Positions 44,655-53,796 of a stretch of DNA of 64,000 nt are shown in pieces. Every line of letters starts with the position of its first letter. Position 1 is the stretch's first letter. The position numbers and the translations under genes were made by a program. The DNA is from Candidatus Woesearchaeota archaeon (GTDB taxonomy: Archaea; Nanobdellota; Nanobdellia; Woesearchaeales; GW2011-AR4). The stretch covers positions 1,564-65,563 of the forward strand of contig JACPMV010000002.1 in the NCBI GenBank assembly GCA_016185845.1, read 5' to 3'. Below the pieces are notes generated by a model that was given only the letters and a program-made list of their open reading frames with translations, was not told the DNA's origin and did not search any database.

Positions 44655-45782
44655 TTACCATCCATTTTTGATTGTTTTGATTATATAATCCACATCCCTG
44701 TCTGACAGGTTATTGTGCAATGGCAAAGATATATTTGTCTTTGAGAACCTATCAAGAGCAGGCAAGTCTTTTCTTAAGCCTCCAAAAATTGCATATGCAT
44801 CATTCCTCATGTGTATAATTGAAGTTTCTATGCCATTAGATGCCATTTTTTTACAAAATTTTTCCCTATTCTTAACATGCACAGTGAAAAGCTCGTTTGC
44901 GCTTTCCCGGTCACTTTTTGATTCAAGCAAGGATAATCCTTTGATTTTCTTAAAAGATTCCATGTATTTTTTAACTACTTCTCTTCGCCTGCTTTTGATT
45001 TTTTTGCATTCTTCCAGATTCGCCAAGCCAATGGCAGCATTAATATTTGTCATATGGTATCCATAGCCTCTTTCTGTTACATCAAAATCATAATAACCTT
45101 CAACTGTCGGCTTTCTGTTAATCCTGTCTATGCCGTACCATCTTCTTCTCATTGCAGACTTGAAATCCTTCTTATTCAATACTATTAAAATACCCCCTTC
45201 TCCTGCCGTAATCTGCTTTATTGCCTGGAATGAAAAGCACGTAAAGTCTGAGATAGTTCCAATGATTTTATTTTTATACTTTGCTCCAAGGGCGTCGCTT
45301 GCATCTTCGATTACTTTCATATCGTGTTTTTGCGCTATCCTGCTTATTTCGTCCATATCAGCAGGGTAGCCAGCCCAATGAGCAACAATAATCGCCTTGG
45401 TCTTTTTTGTAATCCTTTTTTCTATGTCATTTGGGTCAATATTGCCGGTTTCATACTGTATGTCTGCAAACACAGGCTTTGCGTATTGCTCAAGTATTGG
45501 GTGGTTTGTCCATGTGCATGTTTGGGCTGTCGTTATGACTTCATCTCCTGGATTCACTCCTGCAATATCCAACGCTATTTTTATCGCTGATGAGACGCTG
45601 TTTACAGCCACAGGAAACGGAATATTAAATATTGATTTGAATTTATTTTCAAAATCATTGACTTTTTGGCCCTGGCCGATCCACCTGCTTTTCATTACCT
45701 CCTCTGCATACACAATTGCATTTTTAGAAAGGTAAGGCGAGAACATGACTATTTTACTCATTACCATCCGCCCCTTATGCAC
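44655..45782 (-). CDS. DegT/DnrJ/EryC1-family sugar aminotransferase (paralog A of a tandem pair).
   Basis: GDEVITTAQT and CFSFQAIKQITAGEGGIL (PLP-Lys). The start is uncertain; internal Mets at residues 6 and 8 are also possible. Confidence 0.8.
   Translation of the reverse strand: MHKGRMVMSKIVMFSPYLSKNAIVYAEEVMKSRWIGQGQKVNDFENKFKSIFNIPFPVAVNSVSSAIKIALDIAGVNPGDEVITTAQTCTWTNHPILEQYAKPVFADIQYETGNIDPNDIEKRITKKTKAIIVAHWAGYPADMDEISRIAQKHDMKVIEDASDALGAKYKNKIIGTISDFTCFSFQAIKQITAGEGGILIVLNKKDFKSAMRRRWYGIDRINRKPTVEGYYDFDVTERGYGYHMTNINAAIGLANLEECKKIKSRRREVVKKYMESFKKIKGLSLLESKSDRESANELFTVHVKNREKFCKKMASNGIETSIIHMRNDAYAIFGGLRKDLPALDRFSKTNISLPLHNNLSDRDVDYIIKTIKNGW
45400..45483. repeat. 84-nt block, about 93% identical to 46506-46589, shared by the two tandem DegT paralogs.
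   Basis: 78/84 nt identical, whereas the flanking coding sequence of the paralogs is only about 65% identical. Encodes KPVF(A/V)DIQYETGNIDPNDIEKRITKKTKAI in both. Confidence 0.8.
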
Positions 45783-46897
45783 TTTAAAATATAATCCAAA
45801 TCATCATTGCTAAGGTGATTGTGCAGCGGCAACGAAACATGCGTTTTTGTGAATTCAGCCAATTGCTTCAAATCCTTTCTTAATGGGCCGAAGGCGTCAT
45901 TTGCGTCTATCCTGTTATGAATCACAGAAACTTCAACACCTTTTTTCAGCATCATGGTTATGAAATCAGTTCTTCTTTCAACGTGCATTGAGAAAAGCCA
46001 GTTTGCGCTTTTTCTGTCTGATTTTCTTTCAAATAGTTTTATGTTTTTGATTTTTGCCAGCCCTTCATTGTACCTTTTTACTATTTCAGCGCGTCTTTTT
46101 AATATAGATTTTAATTCTTTCAGGTTTTCCAGTCCAAGCGCTGCTGAAAAATCATTTAGATGGTATTTGTAGCCGACTTCATTCACATTCCATAGCGGCT
46201 CTCCTAAGATTGAAGGCTTTCTGTTGTCCCTGTCAATTCCAAACCATTTTTTTCTTCTTGCCTCGTCATATTTTTCCTTGCTGTCAAGGCAGAGCATGCC
46301 GCCGTCTGCTGATGTAACATGCTTTATTGCCTGGAATGAGAAACAAGTATAAGGTGAGATTGTTCCTATAGATTTTCCCTTATAATGAGCTCCTAATGCA
46401 TGGGCTGCATCCTCAATAACCGGCAAATTGTGCTTTTTTGCTATTTCATGTATCTCATCCATATCGCATGGATAGCCTGTCCAATGGACAGGAAGAATTG
46501 CTTTTGTCTTTTTTGTTATCCTTTTTTCAATATCATTTGGGTCAATATTGCCAGTTTCATACTGTATATCTACAAACACAGGCTTTGCGAATTGAGCCAG
46601 AATTGTATGGCTTGTTGCCATCATGGTCTGGGCTGTTGTTATTACCTCATCTCCCGGCTTTACGCCTGCCATTACAACAGCAAGATGCAAAGCAGCAGTG
46701 CCGCTGTTCACAGCAACCGGGTATTTTGCGCCTGTTAATTCAGAGAACTTCTTTTCAAACTCCTTTACTACAGGGCCTTCTCCAAGATACCTGCTTTTCA
46801 GCACTTTATTTACGGCTGAGGCTGCCTTTTTTGACACATAAGGCGAGAACATTCTTATCTTAAGATTCAGCTTGCTTAAATCCATATTATAAACCAC
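45761..46897 (-). CDS. DegT/DnrJ/EryC1-family sugar aminotransferase (paralog B of a tandem pair).
   Basis: GDEVITTAQT and CFSFQAIKHVTSADGGML. About 55-60% identical to paralog A, with an identical 29-aa block. Confidence 0.8.
   Translation of the reverse strand: MVYNMDLSKLNLKIRMFSPYVSKKAASAVNKVLKSRYLGEGPVVKEFEKKFSELTGAKYPVAVNSGTAALHLAVVMAGVKPGDEVITTAQTMMATSHTILAQFAKPVFVDIQYETGNIDPNDIEKRITKKTKAILPVHWTGYPCDMDEIHEIAKKHNLPVIEDAAHALGAHYKGKSIGTISPYTCFSFQAIKHVTSADGGMLCLDSKEKYDEARRKKWFGIDRDNRKPSILGEPLWNVNEVGYKYHLNDFSAALGLENLKELKSILKRRAEIVKRYNEGLAKIKNIKLFERKSDRKSANWLFSMHVERRTDFITMMLKKGVEVSVIHNRIDANDAFGPLRKDLKQLAEFTKTHVSLPLHNHLSNDDLDYILKCIRGGW
46506..46589. repeat. Partner copy of the 84-nt conserved block in the second DegT paralog.
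   Basis: See 45400-45483. Confidence 0.8.
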
Positions 46898-46963
46898 CCT
46901 ATACCTTTTAATTACCCTTTGTAATTTAAGAATTGTTTATAATGGTTTCTATTGGGGGTCGAA

Positions 46964-47368
46964 TCATTCACTTGCCCTATTTGAACTGCTTCCCAATTTT
47001 AGCATTATGTAAGACCCCATAAACAAATAAAGAAAGTATAGAAAAATAATCATTAAATATTCAAAAATTCTTGATTTATCAAACAATTCAGCATACTCAT
47101 TCTCAAATACTAGATAGTGAATCATTATAAAAGAAATTAAAATTAGAACGACTGCTGTCAAAATAGATGTACCTAGTGCAATATTGTCTGGTATTTTCTT
47201 TTTTAATTTATAAGTATAATAATAACCTGTAATGTATGAACCAGCTAGCACACTAATAGGCATGATATTTCTAATAATTGAAGTAATAATCAAATCAATA
47301 ATTGTTATTAGTCCTATATTAAATAAAGATAACAGGTAGAAATTGTTGTACAATTTATTTTTATTCAT
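46964..47368 (-). CDS. Small hypothetical membrane protein.
   Basis: 134 aa with 3-4 hydrophobic helices. No recognisable family. Confidence 0.3.
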   Translation of the reverse strand: MNKNKLYNNFYLLSLFNIGLITIIDLIITSIIRNIMPISVLAGSYITGYYYTYKLKKKIPDNIALGTSILTAVVLILISFIMIHYLVFENEYAELFDKSRIFEYLMIIFLYFLYLFMGSYIMLKLGSSSNRASE

Positions 47369-47432
47369 ATCTATATAAATTTCTTAAAACTATTTAATTA
47401 TATTGGATTGAGGAATCAATTTATCCAATCTC

Positions 47433-48176
47433 TTACTTCTTATTTTTCCCGTTTCTGTTTTCCAAATTCCTCATCATTATTGATGCCCTTAATAATGAGT
47501 CAAAGCTTCCGGCATCTGACCAGAATTTCCTTATTTTGTTGTAATAAAGCTGCCCTTTCTTTACATACGCGTCCAGGGCGTCTGTTACCTCTATTTCATT
47601 TCTCCATGAAGGCTTTAGCTTGCGTATTATGCCAAATACCTTGGAATCAAACATGTAAAGCCCGGTCATAGCAAGGTTAGATTTTGGCTTTTTGGGCTTT
47701 TCCTCGACATAAGTTACCTTGCCGTCGTTGACAAGCGCTATCCCGAATTTTTTTGCATCTTCCATGCTTACTTCCTTCAGGAATATCCTAGCGCCTTCCT
47801 TCTGCTTTTCAAACTCTTTTACATAAGGAGCTATGTCTTCCTCGAATATATTGTCGCCAAGTATGACAACGCATTTGTCATCACCCACAAAATCCTTTGC
47901 CAGTCCAAGAGCCTGGCCTATTCCGCCGGCTTCTTCCTGTATCTCATAGGTGAAAGTGGCATCAAAGTTTTTTCCTGACTTCAGCAATTTAAGAAAGTGA
48001 CCTGCATGATCTGGTCCGGATATTATCAATATATTTTTTATTCCGGCCTTCAGCAGGGTATGCAGAGGGCAGTAAATCATCGGTTTCGAATAAACCGGGA
48101 GCAAATGTTTATTTGTAACAAGGGTTAATGGATTTAATCTAGTTCCTGTTCCACCAGCAAGAATAATTCCTTTCAT
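47433..48176 (-). CDS. rmlA: Sugar-phosphate nucleotidyltransferase, short-form glucose-1-phosphate thymidylyltransferase-like.
   Basis: MKGIILAGGTGTRLNPLTLVTNKHLLPVYSKPMIY is the RmlA/NTP_transferase N-terminus. Operon context with rmlB and rmlC. Confidence 0.75.
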   Translation of the reverse strand: MKGIILAGGTGTRLNPLTLVTNKHLLPVYSKPMIYCPLHTLLKAGIKNILIISGPDHAGHFLKLLKSGKNFDATFTYEIQEEAGGIGQALGLAKDFVGDDKCVVILGDNIFEEDIAPYVKEFEKQKEGARIFLKEVSMEDAKKFGIALVNDGKVTYVEEKPKKPKSNLAMTGLYMFDSKVFGIIRKLKPSWRNEIEVTDALDAYVKKGQLYYNKIRKFWSDAGSFDSLLRASIMMRNLENRNGKNKK

Positions 48177-49081
48177 TTTTCTAATATCTCCTTAATATCA
48201 AGATATTTTTTATATTTCCTATCAAGATGTAATATACTATCACGATATAGCCAATCAAATATTCTTAATGCCTGCCTATTTCCCCTATATCTTAATGCCC
48301 AATGGTTTTCGTTTTTAATATTTTGTGTTAATTTAACCATGTTCAAGTTTAAATATTTTATTAAAAAATACTGTATATCCAACAATATTTCTTTTGTGCC
48401 AACTATTTGAAACAATAAAGAATTCTTTTTATAGATGATGCTACCATCTCCCTCAAAAAATCCTTTAATGAATGATCTAACAATTTCTTCATTATCGGAA
48501 ACCTTAATTATTTCGGGAAAAAGCTCCTTTTTTGTTTTGCTTTCAGTAACGCCTAAATTCTCTAGTCTCCTTACAAGATATTTGCTAGATATTTTTAATA
48601 ATGATTGTTCATAGTATTTGTTTGTTCTCTTTAAGAAATCCTTATTTATAAAAATCTTTCCAGTATATCCAAGTAAATTCTTAATTTTTGTTAGAACTTC
48701 TATATCCTTCCTACTTAGCTTTAAGCCGAAAGAATGAGAATTTTTGGTTTTATTTATAAATCCATCACTTAATATCCACCCAAGTACCCAAGCATTATTT
48801 TGGTTAATATCATCAAAGAAATTCATATTAACTTCGTATTTTCTTGCATCTAATTTATATGTTTTATCCCTAATTGGTATCTTGTATTTGCGTAATCTTT
48901 GGCTTATGACCCATTGTGAGACTCCAAGGCTCTTTGCAATCTGATCTTGGGATTTCTTTCTTAGAATATATTCTTCAACCAAAAATTTCTTTGATATATC
49001 ATAACTATTCTTAATTCTCTCAGTGAAATTATCGCTGTTATTTATGTTTCTAAAATTTCCGTAAATGTTTTCAACTTTCAT
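48173..49081 (-). CDS. Free-standing double-motif LAGLIDADG homing-endonuclease-like protein with N-terminal HTH.
   Basis: Two LAGLIDADG motifs (VLGWILSDGF and IKGFFEGDGSI) plus HTH SQDQIAKSLGVSQWVISQRLRKY. ATGA overlap with the downstream rmlA-like gene. Confidence 0.6.
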   Translation of the reverse strand: MKVENIYGNFRNINNSDNFTERIKNSYDISKKFLVEEYILRKKSQDQIAKSLGVSQWVISQRLRKYKIPIRDKTYKLDARKYEVNMNFFDDINQNNAWVLGWILSDGFINKTKNSHSFGLKLSRKDIEVLTKIKNLLGYTGKIFINKDFLKRTNKYYEQSLLKISSKYLVRRLENLGVTESKTKKELFPEIIKVSDNEEIVRSFIKGFFEGDGSIIYKKNSLLFQIVGTKEILLDIQYFLIKYLNLNMVKLTQNIKNENHWALRYRGNRQALRIFDWLYRDSILHLDRKYKKYLDIKEILEK

Positions 49082-49169
49082 ATTTTTGGGACATTCTTGC
49101 CAATTAAAGTATGCGAAATAATATAAACCTTTTCATTTAATTTTATCTCTGAGATTTCATTTATATAGT

Positions 49170-50162
49170 TCAATAATAATGCTTCCTGTAGTATTCCTTG
49201 TATTCTCCTGATTTTATCTTCTTCCACCAATTTTGGTTGTTTTTGTACCATTTTACTGTGTCCTTAAGCGCCTGTTCAAACTTAAATCTCGGCCTCCATC
49301 CAAGCTTTCTGAGCTTTGAGGAATTAATCGAGTATCTCCTGTCATGCCCCGGCCTGTCTTTGACATATTCTATAGAGGATTCATCTTTGCCAAGCTCACT
49401 GAGCAGCAATTTTGTGATTTCAATATTTGTCTTTTCATTATCCGCTCCGATATTGTATATTTCCCCGATAGCGCCTTTGTGCATTATGAAGTCTATGGCT
49501 TCGCAATTGTCAATGACATAAAGCCAGTCCCTTACATTCAACCCGTCGCCATAAACAGGAACTTTCTTGCCTTCCAAAAGGTTGGTTATAAACAATGGCA
49601 GGAGTTTCTCAGGATACTGGTATTGGCCGAAATTATTTGAGCTTCTTGTGATTATGACAGGAACTCCAAAAGTCTTATTGTAAGACCTTGCAATCAAGTC
49701 ACCGCCTGCCTTGCTTGCTGAATAAGGGCTGTTTGGCTGCAGTGCAGACTCTTCTGTAAACGAGCCTTTTTCAATGCTTCCATAAACCTCGTCTGTTGAT
49801 ACCTGGATAAATTTTTTTATATTATGTTTTCTTGAAGCCTCAAGCAGGGTATGGGTTCCGTCAACATCTGTCCTTATGAATCTTTTTGGGTCATCAATTG
49901 ACCTGTCAACATGAGTTTCTGCTGCGAAGTTCAATACAATATCTTTGCCTTCAACCAGCTTGTCCACAATCTTTGCATCGCATATATCCCCCTTTACAAA
50001 ACTATAATTCTTATTTTTTTCTATGTCTCTTAGATTTTCTGGGTTGCCTGCGTATGTGATTTTATCAAGATTGGTTACATTATACTGAGGATATTTGCCG
50101 AGAATGTGCCTTATGAAATTAGAGCCTATAAATCCCAAGCCGCCAGTAACTAAAACCTGCAT
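49170..50162 (-). CDS. rmlB: dTDP-glucose 4,6-dehydratase.
   Basis: MQVLVTGGLGFIGSNFIRHIL, YSASKAGGD (YxxxK) and NIGADNEKTN, conserved throughout. The start was moved to the internal Met (cat at 50160-50162), which abuts the rmlC stop. Confidence 0.85.
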   Translation of the reverse strand: MQVLVTGGLGFIGSNFIRHILGKYPQYNVTNLDKITYAGNPENLRDIEKNKNYSFVKGDICDAKIVDKLVEGKDIVLNFAAETHVDRSIDDPKRFIRTDVDGTHTLLEASRKHNIKKFIQVSTDEVYGSIEKGSFTEESALQPNSPYSASKAGGDLIARSYNKTFGVPVIITRSSNNFGQYQYPEKLLPLFITNLLEGKKVPVYGDGLNVRDWLYVIDNCEAIDFIMHKGAIGEIYNIGADNEKTNIEITKLLLSELGKDESSIEYVKDRPGHDRRYSINSSKLRKLGWRPRFKFEQALKDTVKWYKNNQNWWKKIKSGEYKEYYRKHYY

Positions 50163-50163
50163 T

Positions 50164-50622
50164 TTAGCCTCCTTCCTCAAGCCCCCAGTCATATGGAATG
50201 TCCTTGCTCTTGAAATCTATCCGGAATTCATCAGGAGTTTTGTAATCATAGGGATGTGTGCAGCAATTTATAAGGTAGCATTGCTCATTATCTTCAGATG
50301 CAAATCCATGAATGACATATGGGGGTATTGTGAGCAATACAGGATTTTTCTCTCCCATGAGTATTTCCTGCACTTTGCCTTTTGTCTTGCTCTTTTCCCT
50401 GTTGTCATACAGGACAATCTTTGCATTTCCCTTTACAACAACAAAGAAATCAGCCTGCTTTTTATGGTAGTGCCAGCCCTTTACAACGCCGGGATTGCAG
50501 ACTGTAAGGTAAACCTGCCCGAATTTCTGAAAAATAGGCTCATCGCAGCGCAGCATCTCCATCAGGTAGCCGCGGCTGTCCTTTATTATCTTCAGCTTTT
50601 TTATTTCAACGCCTTTAATCAT
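50164..50622 (-). CDS. rmlC: dTDP-4-dehydrorhamnose 3,5-epimerase (short cupin form).
   Basis: RGYLMEM...GQVYLTVCNPGVVKGWHYHKKQADFFVVVKG...YVIHGFAS are RmlC cupin motifs (catalytic His/Lys/Tyr region). Confidence 0.7.
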   Translation of the reverse strand: MIKGVEIKKLKIIKDSRGYLMEMLRCDEPIFQKFGQVYLTVCNPGVVKGWHYHKKQADFFVVVKGNAKIVLYDNREKSKTKGKVQEILMGEKNPVLLTIPPYVIHGFASEDNEQCYLINCCTHPYDYKTPDEFRIDFKSKDIPYDWGLEEGG

Positions 50623-51892: not shown

Positions 51893-52867
51893 TCACTTCA
51901 CATGCAGCTGATTATTAATCTTATTTTTCCACCACCATTTATTCCCCTTATACCAGCTTATTGTTTTGTCCAGGCCATCTTCAAAAGAATATTTTTGCTT
52001 CCACCCTAATGCCATTAGCTTTCCAGCATCTACGCTGTACCTTTTATCATTAAATGGCCGGTCCTTGACAAATTCTATGCAGCTCTCGCCCTTTCCAAGC
52101 TTTTTTATCAGCAATCTGCCAAGCCCCATATTCGAGATTTCGTCGGATGTCCCAATGTTGTATATCTCACCGATTTTTCCTTTGTTGAATACAATATCGA
52201 CGGCATTGGAAAAGTCATCAACATAAATGTAAGTTCTTATATTGGATCCATCGCCATGCAGCGTGACTTTTCTGCCCTCCAGCAGGCTGATGATGAACTT
52301 GGATATTATTTTTTCAGGATACTGGAATGGCCCGAACACATTATTGCCCCTGACTATCACTATAGGCAGCCCATAAGTTTTATGGTAAGATCTTATTATC
52401 ATCTCCGCACCAGCCTTGGATGCAGAATAAGGATTATTGGGATTTAGGACAGAGTCCTCCTTGAAAGAGCCTTTTTCTATATCTCCATAGACTTCATCTG
52501 TCGATATATGCACAATTTTCTTTACCTTGTTCAGCCTGGCAGCCTCCAGCAGGACATGAGTCCCATACGTGTTTGACATGGTAAAAATCAGGGAATTCCC
52601 TATAGAATTGTCTACATGGCTTTCTGCCGCAAGATGGATAATGCAGTCTATGCCTTTTAGCAATTTCATCAAGAGCCCGAAGTCGCAAACATCCCCTTTC
52701 ACAAACCTGTAGTTTTTTTTCTTCTCTACATCCTTTAAGTTGCTTATATCTCCTGCATAAGTTAGCTTGTCGTAATTTATTATTGAATGCTCTGGGTATT
52801 TGTTCACCATAAACCTGACAAAATTGCTCCCTATAAACCCAGCACCCCCAGTTATTAGTATTTTCAT
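51893..52867 (-). CDS. dTDP-glucose 4,6-dehydratase paralog (RmlB-like).
   Basis: MKILITGGAGFIGSNFVRFMV, YSASKAGAE and NIGTSDEISN are closely similar to the rmlB at 49170. The start was moved to the Met forming a TCAT/ATGA overlap with the upstream SDR gene. Confidence 0.8.
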   Translation of the reverse strand: MKILITGGAGFIGSNFVRFMVNKYPEHSIINYDKLTYAGDISNLKDVEKKKNYRFVKGDVCDFGLLMKLLKGIDCIIHLAAESHVDNSIGNSLIFTMSNTYGTHVLLEAARLNKVKKIVHISTDEVYGDIEKGSFKEDSVLNPNNPYSASKAGAEMIIRSYHKTYGLPIVIVRGNNVFGPFQYPEKIISKFIISLLEGRKVTLHGDGSNIRTYIYVDDFSNAVDIVFNKGKIGEIYNIGTSDEISNMGLGRLLIKKLGKGESCIEFVKDRPFNDKRYSVDAGKLMALGWKQKYSFEDGLDKTISWYKGNKWWWKNKINNQLHVK

Positions 52868-53796
52868 TTTTTCCTGATGTTCCTGCAGCACCCAACCATT
52901 CTTTTAATTCCTTCCTTCATTTTTATTTTGGCTTCCCACCCAAAAGCCTTCTTTGCTTTTGAGATATCAAAATAGAAGCTGCCAAGCTCGAATTTCTTCA
53001 AATCCTCAGGGAAAGGCACAGCCTTAAAGCTTCCGGATTTACATTCATTAACAACATTCCTGGCTATGTCAATGAATCTGATCCTTTCGCCAGAGCCAAC
53101 ATTAAATATCCCCCCATCAACTTTTGATTCTATTACCTTAATTATCAGCGCTACAAGGTCATCTATATAAATCAGGTCTTTAATGTCCCTGCCATAGCCA
53201 TTTACATAAAATTCCTCGCTGTTCAGGGCTTTCCTGATAAATTTATTTATTATATTGTTCTTGTTCTCGCCACCTATCTCCGGCCCGTACACAATGGACA
53301 TTCTTAGCATGACAAAATTTAGGTTGAAAGCATTTTTGTACAGCTTGCAGTAGTTTTCCGCTGCCTGCTTATGTATGCCATAAAGCGAGACTGGTCTTTG
53401 GCAGCTGTCTTCCGAGATAGGCAAATCCTTTTTTTTGACCCTTCCAAACTGCGCCCTGCTCCCGAAAAAAATATATTTAGAGCCAGGATTGACATTTTTT
53501 CTTGCTTCCAGTATATTCAGCTGGCCGATGCAGTTTACCTCAAGGTCCCCATAAGGCTCAAAATGCGAATCCGGATTAACTATCGCTGCCAGATTAATTA
53601 TGACGTCCTTGTTTTTTACATTGTCTTCAATGCATTTGTAATCTGCTACGCTTCCTTTTACCGCTTTTAGGCTGCCAGCAAATCCTAATTTGCCGATTAC
53701 ATCCGTGTTTTTAGGGCTCAACACGGTCAGATCATAATTACGCCCTGACAGGCTCCTGATTAAATGCAATCCAATGAATCCTGTTCCGCCTATCAA
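52864..53796 (-). CDS. NAD-dependent epimerase/dehydratase (SDR; 4-ketoreductase or 4-epimerase-like).
   Basis: MIGGTGFIGLHLIRSL and YGIHKQAAE (YxxxK). Confidence 0.7.
   Translation of the reverse strand: MIGGTGFIGLHLIRSLSGRNYDLTVLSPKNTDVIGKLGFAGSLKAVKGSVADYKCIEDNVKNKDVIINLAAIVNPDSHFEPYGDLEVNCIGQLNILEARKNVNPGSKYIFFGSRAQFGRVKKKDLPISEDSCQRPVSLYGIHKQAAENYCKLYKNAFNLNFVMLRMSIVYGPEIGGENKNNIINKFIRKALNSEEFYVNGYGRDIKDLIYIDDLVALIIKVIESKVDGGIFNVGSGERIRFIDIARNVVNECKSGSFKAVPFPEDLKKFELGSFYFDISKAKKAFGWEAKIKMKEGIKRMVGCCRNIRKK

Follow-up and report, generated by a model that had tools for sequence, protein, structure and literature searches.

What does a LAGLIDADG gene that belongs to neither an intron nor an intein do in the middle of an rml operon? 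By the usual account, homing endonuclease genes persist in essential or conserved genes only within self-splicing introns or inteins. The question is raised by a 64,000-nucleotide stretch of a Candidatus Woesearchaeota archaeon genome (GenBank assembly GCA_016185845.1, contig JACPMV010000002.1, positions 1,564 to 65,563; hereafter the window), in which an open reading frame (ORF) at 48173-49081 lies between rmlB and an rmlA-like gene. An initial annotation, made from the sequence alone, had seen in it either a domesticated regulator or a selfish element of the operon's intergenic space. The analysis reported here indicates that the ORF is likely to be a free-standing LAGLIDADG homing endonuclease gene which specifically parasitises rmlA, and which brings with it a replacement ribosome-binding site (RBS), start codon and first 22 codons for the gene that it invades. 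This proposal was built on the fold of the protein, the conservation of its catalytic residues, its linkage to rmlA, the presence of two rmlA 5' ends of different ancestry, an empty site, decayed copies of the element, and a built-in RBS with an ATGA overlap.

The ORF encodes a real protein, and is not a chance reading frame, as indicated by its 154 homologs and by an identical record (HYX06_00380, Candidatus Woesearchaeota archaeon). The Pfam family LAGLIDADG_3 (PF14528) matches this protein in two stretches with 32.6 bits (cut-off 22.5). An AlphaFold model, for which an alignment of 37 homologs at 43-64% identity served as input, comprises a helix-turn-helix (HTH) and two LAGLIDADG domains, with a mean predicted local distance difference test (pLDDT) score of 90.2. 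The parts of the gene are as follows.

48173..49081, minus strand: free-standing HTH plus double-LAGLIDADG endonuclease gene, 302 amino acids (aa) plus stop, ATG start (from the ORF list)
48995..49081, minus strand: N-terminal leader, aa 1-29, starting ATGAAAG like rmlA, with pLDDT <50 over most of aa 1-24
48887..48991, minus strand: three-helix HTH, aa 31-65 (helices 31-40, 45-52 and 56-65 in the AlphaFold model; weak HTH profile matches)
48557..48802, minus strand: LAGLIDADG domain 1, aa 94-175 (predicted secondary structure and conservation)
48248..48490, minus strand: LAGLIDADG domain 2, aa 198-278 (predicted secondary structure and conservation)
48758-48787, minus strand: motif VLGWILSDGF, aa 99-108, with the codon of the catalytic D106 at 48764-48766
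48437-48469, minus strand: motif IKGFFEGDGSI, aa 205-215, with the codon of the catalytic D212 at 48446-48448

In the model, the helices at 94-106 and 198-212 are each followed by a beta-beta-alpha-beta-beta-alpha arrangement, and aa 66-93 form a linker; aa 1-29 are predicted to be disordered and are unconserved in the 37-homolog alignment. The top matches of a Foldseek comparison with the PDB were all LAGLIDADG proteins, found with a probability of 1.0: the bI3 maturase, I-HjeMI, I-AniI, the I-OnuI family, I-Tsp061I and I-DmoI, the entries at that probability including 2ab5, 3uvf and 1p8k in addition to I-OnuI and I-DmoI. As modelled, the window protein is thus a monomeric double-motif LAGLIDADG fold. 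Both D106 and D212 are present, each being conserved in at least 90% of the 37 homologs (P0008 has N at position 106 and P0004 has N at position 212), and the residues that follow them, G107 and G213, are invariant. Within the HTH, S44 is invariant and Q45, S55, Q56, W57 and R62 are conserved at 90% or more, S55, Q56 and W57 being located in the recognition helix.

Much of what the initial annotation had read in the sequence was therefore borne out. Both motifs are found where it had placed them and the LAGLIDADG_3 match is above threshold, the acidic residues whose conservation it had asked about are kept in both motifs, and the second LAGLIDADG helix, on which it had wanted a careful alignment, is present (198-212, with D212). 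Its N-terminal HTH of the sigma-70 region-4 type stood as regards the HTH, a three-helix unit in the model, but the sigma-70 label is only generic: Sigma70_r4 (E 0.008), HTH_50 and HTH_3 all remained under their cut-offs, as weak profile matches spanning aa 31-71. It was also right to place the gene outside introns and inteins. No Rfam family, and hence no group I or group II intron, was found in 46800-50400 at E values up to 1, and Pfam detected no Hint or intein domain in the endonuclease, which indicates that the gene is free-standing. An intron or intein origin was ruled out on this permissive but empty Rfam scan and on the missing Hint domain, the endonuclease gene having moreover its own stop codon, after which rmlA restarts.

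If the gene is a free-standing homing endonuclease, to which gene is it attached? Related loci were gathered by exact-protein look-ups and by pattern scans of GTDB genomes, JGI metagenomes and IMG/VR. The linkage set comprised approximately 40 non-identical loci, each with a homolog at 37% identity or more and with available DNA downstream of it; in all of them, the rmlA start coincides with the endonuclease stop or lies a few nucleotides (nt) from it, on the same strand. The upstream neighbour of the endonuclease varies: it is rmlB in some loci, a DUF5656 gene in L006 and unannotated ORFs in others, and rmlB is located downstream in many. The hosts of the homologs include Woesearchaeota, Pacearchaeota and Iainarchaeota (DPANN), Nealsonbacteria (candidate phyla radiation, CPR) and Omnitrophota, together with metagenome-assembled genomes (MAGs) labelled Planctomycetia and Gammaproteobacteria. 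Pairwise identities of the endonuclease and of RmlA are weakly correlated (Spearman rho 0.18, 300 pairs), i.e., co-phylogeny is weak.

Distant homologs (P0043, P0048, L023 and L025, at 37% identity or less) do not adjoin rmlA, so that the rmlA linkage defines the close clade only. Two of them are found at other genes. In L025 (3494-5044; Clostridium brassicae NZ_JAPQFJ010000003), a 516-aa ThyX ORF (PF02511, in two stretches) contains an in-frame HTH and LAGLIDADG interruption with no recognisable Hint, which may represent either an endonuclease inserted in frame or the ORF of an intron joined to the exon upstream of it. In L023 (3204-4831; Methanobacterium sp. MBAC-LM chromosome), a 329-aa ORF with a double HTH and LAGLIDADG has its start precisely on the stop codon of a short thymidylate-synthase-like ORF (PF00303), and is thus a free-standing relative that abuts a nucleotide-metabolism gene.

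A viral vector was also considered for the rmlA-linked clade. The IMG/VR contigs that bear the locus are 258-494 kb long; three of them, and the 7.9-kb L063, are identical over the compared stretch to L046, which is a 506-kb assembled contig. L062, L064 and L065 are IMG/VR uncultivated virus genomes with the rmlB/endonuclease/rmlA locus, two of which match L046 exactly over the endonuclease stretch compared. These large contigs are probably small cellular genomes flagged as viral, and no clear phage carrier was found for the clade.

The sequence in front of the endonuclease tells more about the way in which rmlA is involved. In at least 12 loci or homologs, a second and decaying rmlA 5' end stands directly before the endonuclease, often fused to it in frame. 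Such remnants were found at the DNA level in L065, L046 (identical to L061-64), L015, L021, L039, L045, L006, L007, L001, L002 and L053. Among the homologs, P0023 (MKGIILAGGLGTRLYPLTY..) and P0031 (MKGVILAGGLGTRLYPLTYATK..) open with an RmlA N-terminus, as do P0002 and P0007, P0023 being the protein of L006 and P0002 that of L007. The remnant and the endonuclease are fused in frame in L006, L007, L015, L021, P0023 and P0031. The remnant of L065 is exactly 22 codons long (MKGIILAGGTGSRLMPLTKVTN) and is followed by a stop; that of L046 ends with ..ITKVTN at the junction; that of L015 runs from ..ATN straight into the start of the endonuclease core (RKNIKISKDF); and that of L021 ends with ..TYAT, the junction being followed by K. 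Read together, these four junctions point to a common one after codon 22, between T-N and the K-H-L-L-P that immediately follows.

The remnant and the functional 5' end of the same locus share 53-77% of their nucleotides, and in most of the seven loci that could be scored in register they agree at 15-17 of 22 amino acids (10 of 22 in L015); a hand alignment of L065 gave approximately 60% at the nucleotide level and 19 of 21 amino acids. Such low nucleotide identity together with high amino acid identity indicates two rmlA 5' ends of different ancestry, and not a local tandem duplication. In shuffling tests, similarity beyond nt 57 was non-significant for the remnants of L021, L046, L045 and L039, and the value of p = 0.004 obtained for L015 concerns only the 8-nt AACAAACA which straddles the junction. 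In L002, tRNA-like sequences were seen by eye just upstream of the remnant.

Occupied and empty alleles both exist, the former in the window and in the approximately 40 loci, always at rmlA, and the latter in L056, L055 and L057. For the window RmlA, relatives of 86-93% identity were found, and the best non-identical homolog of its endonuclease reaches 64%. In L056, whose RmlA is 87% identical, the order is rmlC, rmlB, 5 nt and rmlA, without insert; this is the rmlB-rmlA junction free of endonuclease for which the initial annotation had recommended a synteny comparison. Homology between the window and L056 (blastn) extends until 6 nt before the rmlB stop and is found again from 6 nt ahead of the rmlA ATG; between these two points, the window has some 970 extra nt. 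L057 (RmlA 74%) has nothing in this place, and in L055 (2419-3360; ENA ERZ27284378 k139_332247; RmlA 93%) the gene of a 313-aa methyltransferase takes the place of the endonuclease. Truncated endonuclease genes were found in L024, where the deletion is internal and in frame, and in L051, L052 and L053; all four keep the 3' end with the Shine-Dalgarno (SD) sequence and start of rmlA.

How, then, can rmlA remain expressed behind such an insertion? The following features of the window bear on this point.

47433..48176, minus strand: rmlA-like glucose-1-phosphate thymidylyltransferase gene, the proposed invaded host gene (PF00483, E 3.8e-57)
48173..48176, minus strand: ATGA, in which the endonuclease stop overlaps the rmlA start (from the ORF list)
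48188..48193, minus strand: SD-like AAGGAG for rmlA inside the last endonuclease codons (..DIKEILEK and stop; compared with 41 loci)
48111..48176, minus strand: rmlA codons 1-22, the replacement 5' end proposed to have arrived with the element (GC content, divergence, remnant junctions elsewhere)
48097..48113, minus strand: AATAAACATTTGCTCCC encoding N-K-H-L-L-P, putative right half of the target, just 3' of the presumed insertion point
49082..49169, minus strand: AT-rich spacer between rmlB and the endonuclease, 88 nt, 24% GC, missing from the insert-free relative L056
49170..50192, minus strand: rmlB, dTDP-glucose 4,6-dehydratase, left flank (TIGR01181 473 bits, above cut-off)

The position between rmlB and the rmlA-like gene, with a 4-nt ATGA overlap, was already in the initial annotation and is as it had described. 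This overlap suggests translational coupling of the endonuclease and rmlA. The overlap of start and stop is 4 nt in 30 of 41 loci, and 1, 10 or 13 nt in most others. An SD-like tetramer of the GGAG/AGGA type lies no more than 25 nt, and mostly 12-18 nt, upstream of the rmlA start in 36 of the 41, mostly within the endonuclease 3' end, which is conserved as ..IK[R/E][R/E]L. As regards the invaded gene itself, TNKHLLP(V/I)Y is found in 116 of 120 RmlA homologs and occurs only once in the window; homing endonucleases make use of invariant coding sequences such as this. The rmlA-like protein scores 238 bits with TIGR01208 and 235 bits with TIGR01207, both below the equivalog cut-offs, and a rmlC-like cupin gene precedes rmlB.

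The window copy itself was then compared with its relatives. GC content is 27% in the endonuclease, 24% in the 88-nt spacer, 33% in rmlA nt 1-66, 41% in the rest of rmlA and 40% in rmlB. Relative to L056, the window rmlA has 21 mismatches in nt 1-60 and 130 in the 630 nt beyond (Fisher p = 0.010, for a single pair and 60 nt); taken with the low GC content, this is suggestive of co-conversion of host sequence beside the element. The same rmlA 5' divergence separates L055 from L056 (p = 0.0007), and here L055 is like the window: in the immediate RmlA clade of the window, only these two read ..LTLVTNKHLLPVYS.., the proteins P0123-P0128 reading ..LTKVTNKHLLPVYN.., and L055 shares the atypical rmlA 5' end of the window (TLVTN..YS). 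No sign of co-conversion was found in rmlB, its identity to L056 and L055 being undiminished near the 3' end of the gene. Considering the divergence and GC content of rmlA nt 1-66 and the agreement with L055, we read the window as carrying an imported rmlA 5' end; that of L055 may be a scar left after loss of the endonuclease. Since P0023, P0031, P0002, P0007 and several loci carry RmlA N-termini at the corresponding place, the leader at aa 1-29 of the window protein is probably what is left, after decay, of the former rmlA 5' end. Finally, of 119 homologs of the window RmlA, 113 have T-K-[V/I]-T-N before K-H-L-L-P, compared with 2 of 25 endonuclease-linked RmlAs, the linked set being phylogenetically broader; the loss of this sequence is suggestive of a footprint of target-site immunity, which we put forward as a hypothesis only.

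As regards mechanism, cleavage by the enzyme, its exact target (deduced from the junction positions), an extension of the recognised sequence by the HTH, protection of the resident allele from cutting and any present activity of the window copy are inferences. The enzyme would recognise the near-invariant ..T-N-K-H-L-L-P-V-Y.. of rmlA (codons ~18-30) through its two LAGLIDADG domains and its HTH, and insert-free rmlA alleles would be cut near codon 22. Repair from an occupied allele would copy in the element, consisting of the endonuclease body, the SD sequence in its last codons, the ATGA stop/start overlap and rmlA codons 1-22. Insertion after codon 22 would leave the host with an intact and translationally coupled rmlA, and the displaced native 5' end, comprising promoter, RBS and start codon, would first drive the endonuclease as an in-frame fusion and would then decay. 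Both homology arms would be rmlA sequence and no other homology would be needed; the upstream gene would hence be irrelevant, which agrees with the diversity of upstream neighbours and with the presence of the element in archaea as well as bacteria. In our judgement, the chances are about even that this represents an undescribed class of prokaryotic homing element, without intron or intein, which would render its insertion into a conserved coding gene harmless by means of a replacement RBS, start and 5' segment, be expressed from the displaced start and take both arms from one target gene. Such self-sufficiency would let it cross between DPANN and CPR/Omnitrophota, and the variation at rmlA codons 18-21 of occupied alleles would be an immunity footprint.

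Several observations weigh against this proposal. All endonuclease pairs are at most 70% identical, so that no recent homing event was caught. The identity of the 66-nt rmlA 5' piece tracks that of the RmlA body (rho 0.31) better than that of the endonuclease (rho 0.17), contrary to the expectation under simple co-travel; the comparison is uninformative, saturation of synonymous sites and their drift towards host codon usage being the probable cause. The length of the remnant varies between loci, from 5 to 54 codons. The longest, in L053 (434-1040; JGI C687J35174_10354428), is not explained by insertion after codon 22: it diverges from the downstream rmlA over nt 1-63, is nearly identical to it over nt 64-162, and is joined to only the last ~62 endonuclease codons, which a full rmlA follows. 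The remnant of L006 may likewise pass codon 22, with internal deletions (shuffling test beyond nt 57, p = 0.03). These two long remnants might be explained by homing that was aborted, by secondary recombination or by an original duplication of greater length. In the window, the old rmlA 5' remnant is too decayed for confident recognition, and the candidate vestiges (ATGAAAAGGTTTATATTATT at 49117-49136, ATGAAATCT at 49160 and the ATGAAAG of the ORF itself) are indistinguishable in AT-rich sequence. For the window in particular, the case was built from its likeness to homologous loci, from the empty site, and from the base composition of rmlA nt 1-66 and their divergence, for which p was only 0.010. 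Moreover, the reconstituted rmlA still encodes T-N-K-H-L-L-P, and self-immunity must consequently be assumed.

Could the same locus be explained otherwise? The gene might be an inert relic, a former homing endonuclease that no longer cuts and is kept for the RBS and start context of rmlA, possibly with promoter read-through. The full decay of the window remnant and the 64% identity of the nearest homolog do point to an old insertion, and the four truncated copies found elsewhere all keep precisely the 3' end with SD and ATGA, so that this part is retained independently of nuclease function. We nevertheless consider this rather unlikely, as the window ORF is of full length and has all invariant or near-invariant residues of the family, including D106 and D212, with a pLDDT of 90, whereas an unselected AT-rich ORF of 900 nt would be expected to gather stop codons. 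The domesticated regulator offered by the initial annotation, in which the nuclease would be lost or repurposed and the HTH and LAGLIDADG surfaces would bind DNA to control rmlA or the rml operon, appears improbable. WhiA, and I-TevI in its role as a repressor, are precedents (PMC3384342), the HTH is conserved, and the gene is invariably directly upstream of rmlA and translationally coupled to it. However, the catalytic acidic residues that WhiA has lost, and by which active enzymes are told from such domesticated regulators (PMC3384342), are kept, and the gene is missing from the closest rmlA relatives with the same operon (L055 and L056). Truncated copies exist, co-phylogeny with RmlA is weak, and the rmlA 5' pseudo-fragments upstream of the endonuclease have no place in a regulatory scenario. 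It had been suggested that a fixed position combined with degraded motifs would identify a regulator. The fixed position was indeed found, homologs always being directly upstream of rmlA, but the catalytic residues are kept and the nearest relatives lack the gene, a combination predicted for a target-specific homing element.

It is more improbable still, and indeed hardly to be expected, that the endonuclease and a complete rmlA move jointly as a two-gene cassette with another target site, rmlA being the cargo. Their invariant adjacency would agree with such joint movement, as would some nearest-neighbour pairs of loci on which the endonuclease and RmlA concur (L010/L012, L017/L041 and L013/L014). 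The window RmlA nonetheless has insert-free relatives at 87-93% identity with the same gene order (rmlC-rmlB-rmlA), whereas the endonuclease has no relative above 64%; the rmlA body is host-like in GC content, and the upstream remnants derive from rmlA, which identifies this gene as the place of insertion. The evidence thus favours a homing endonuclease gene that parasitises rmlA. The selfish element named by the initial annotation is upheld by the empty L056 junction, the catalytic Asp residues, the decayed copies and the GC content of 27%, but its location has to be revised: as the related loci show, it did not simply enter intergenic DNA and lies inside a duplicated rmlA 5' end. The further idea that it marks a recent transfer of the whole island was not supported, as only the endonuclease and the spacer are foreign in GC content, the rml genes being host-like, the nearest other homolog is at 64% and the window remnant is decayed.

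Other elements were seen in the vicinity of these loci. In L006 (3727-5760), the rmlB located beside the endonuclease-rmlA pair holds an intein (PF14890), i.e., two different selfish elements are present in adjacent rml genes. In L001 (7957-10665), a 902-aa carbamoyltransferase approximately 1 kb from the pair has a LAGLIDADG_3 match between segments of its C-terminal domain, probably an intein. In the Nealsonbacteria loci L002-L004, a pair resembling a diversity-generating retroelement (reverse transcriptase and bAvd) and a PD-(D/E)XK gene are inserted between rmlA and rmlC, ~4.5-6 kb downstream of the endonuclease. In the window, directly downstream of rmlA, a 134-aa ORF (46964-47368, minus strand; 22-30% GC) encodes a hydrophobic, membrane-like product without Pfam match and is a second compositional outlier beside the endonuclease. 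The same glycan-biosynthesis cluster also contains another rmlB (51893-52891, minus strand), which shares 54% identity with the first, and two tandem DegT-like aminotransferase paralogs (44655-46897, minus strand).

Which known systems does the rmlA element resemble? In fungal mitochondria, mobile ORFs (mORFs) with a foreign C-terminal gene end have been described in Allomyces macrogynus atp6 and in Glomus sp. atp6, atp9, cox2 and nad3 (PMC3630166). As in these, a LAGLIDADG (or, in some cases, GIY-YIG) ORF is located inside a conserved coding gene without intron or intein, often in phase with the host gene, and a duplicated gene end borne by the element keeps the host gene intact. The two copies of that end differ markedly in nucleotides and little in protein, the native and imported ends of Glomus atp6 sharing 63.5% of nucleotides and 91% of amino acids (PMC3630166), compared with 53-77% and ~70-90% in most of the present loci. 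However, mORFs replace the 3' (C-terminal) end of organellar genes, whereas the rmlA element replaces the 5' end in archaeal and bacterial chromosomes, is itself translated from the former rmlA start codon, lets rmlA restart at the ATGA overlap and has an extra N-terminal HTH. To judge by these likenesses, the rmlA element works like a mORF, its closest functional analogue, but stands outside that group.

The seg and mob genes of T4-like phages are free-standing homing endonucleases capable of "intronless homing" (PMC2988022). They also lie outside introns and inteins, next to conserved genes, have extra DNA-binding modules, and are inherited by double-strand-break repair with co-conversion of flanks (PMC2988022). 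By contrast, they are of the GIY-YIG or HNH type, occupy intergenic positions and cut at distances of hundreds to thousands of bp, while the rmlA element is of the LAGLIDADG type, lies within its target coding sequence and carries a duplicated gene end. The monomeric enzymes I-AniI, I-HjeMI, bI3 maturase, I-OnuI and I-DmoI share with the window protein the two-domain fold and the acidic residues that end both LAGLIDADG helices; the window protein differs in being only 14-21% identical to such intron-encoded enzymes, in not being intron-encoded and in its added N-terminal HTH.

The phage family PHROG 4645 ("endonuclease") matches the window protein over its full length (E 1.9e-41), and phage ORFs, such as those of Staphylococcus phage RQ1 and Lysinibacillus phage LC76P1, show 26-33% identity over 78-96% of the protein (tblastn). 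They have the same full-length HTH and LAGLIDADG architecture but are phage-borne and without rmlA linkage, whereas members of the rmlA-linked clade (identity of 37% or more) occur only in cellular MAGs from DPANN, CPR and Omnitrophota and on a few large contigs labelled viral. The WhiA/DUF199 regulators also combine a LAGLIDADG scaffold with an HTH, but their LAGLIDADG catalytic acidic residues are lost (PMC3384342), their HTH is C-terminal and they are universally and vertically conserved; the window protein has an N-terminal HTH and its acidic residues, and its gene is missing from the nearest relatives. Intein endonucleases, for their part, lie in frame between Hint blocks with no stop, unlike the window gene, which has no Hint and shows a stop and a restart. 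No literature linking LAGLIDADG enzymes with rmlA was found, the sole co-mention, in Geobacillus flagellin glycosylation islands, being unrelated, and gene invasion with a spare gene end was found described only for fungal mitochondria.

The rmlA locus of the window and its approximately 40 relatives would thus be the mirror image of mORFs, with replacement of the 5' end and built-in translational coupling, in ultra-small archaea and bacteria. If the enzyme is active, it would offer a natural LAGLIDADG plus HTH scaffold with a predictable target in a coding sequence, and the element would be a concrete vehicle for the exchange of gene fragments among DPANN, CPR and Omnitrophota. Annotators would then be warned of possible mosaics in such genomes, both at the 5' end of rmlA and in the "hypothetical" ORFs upstream of it, and the life cycle of the element, from invasion through decay of the displaced end and truncation to loss, would be readable directly from metagenomes.

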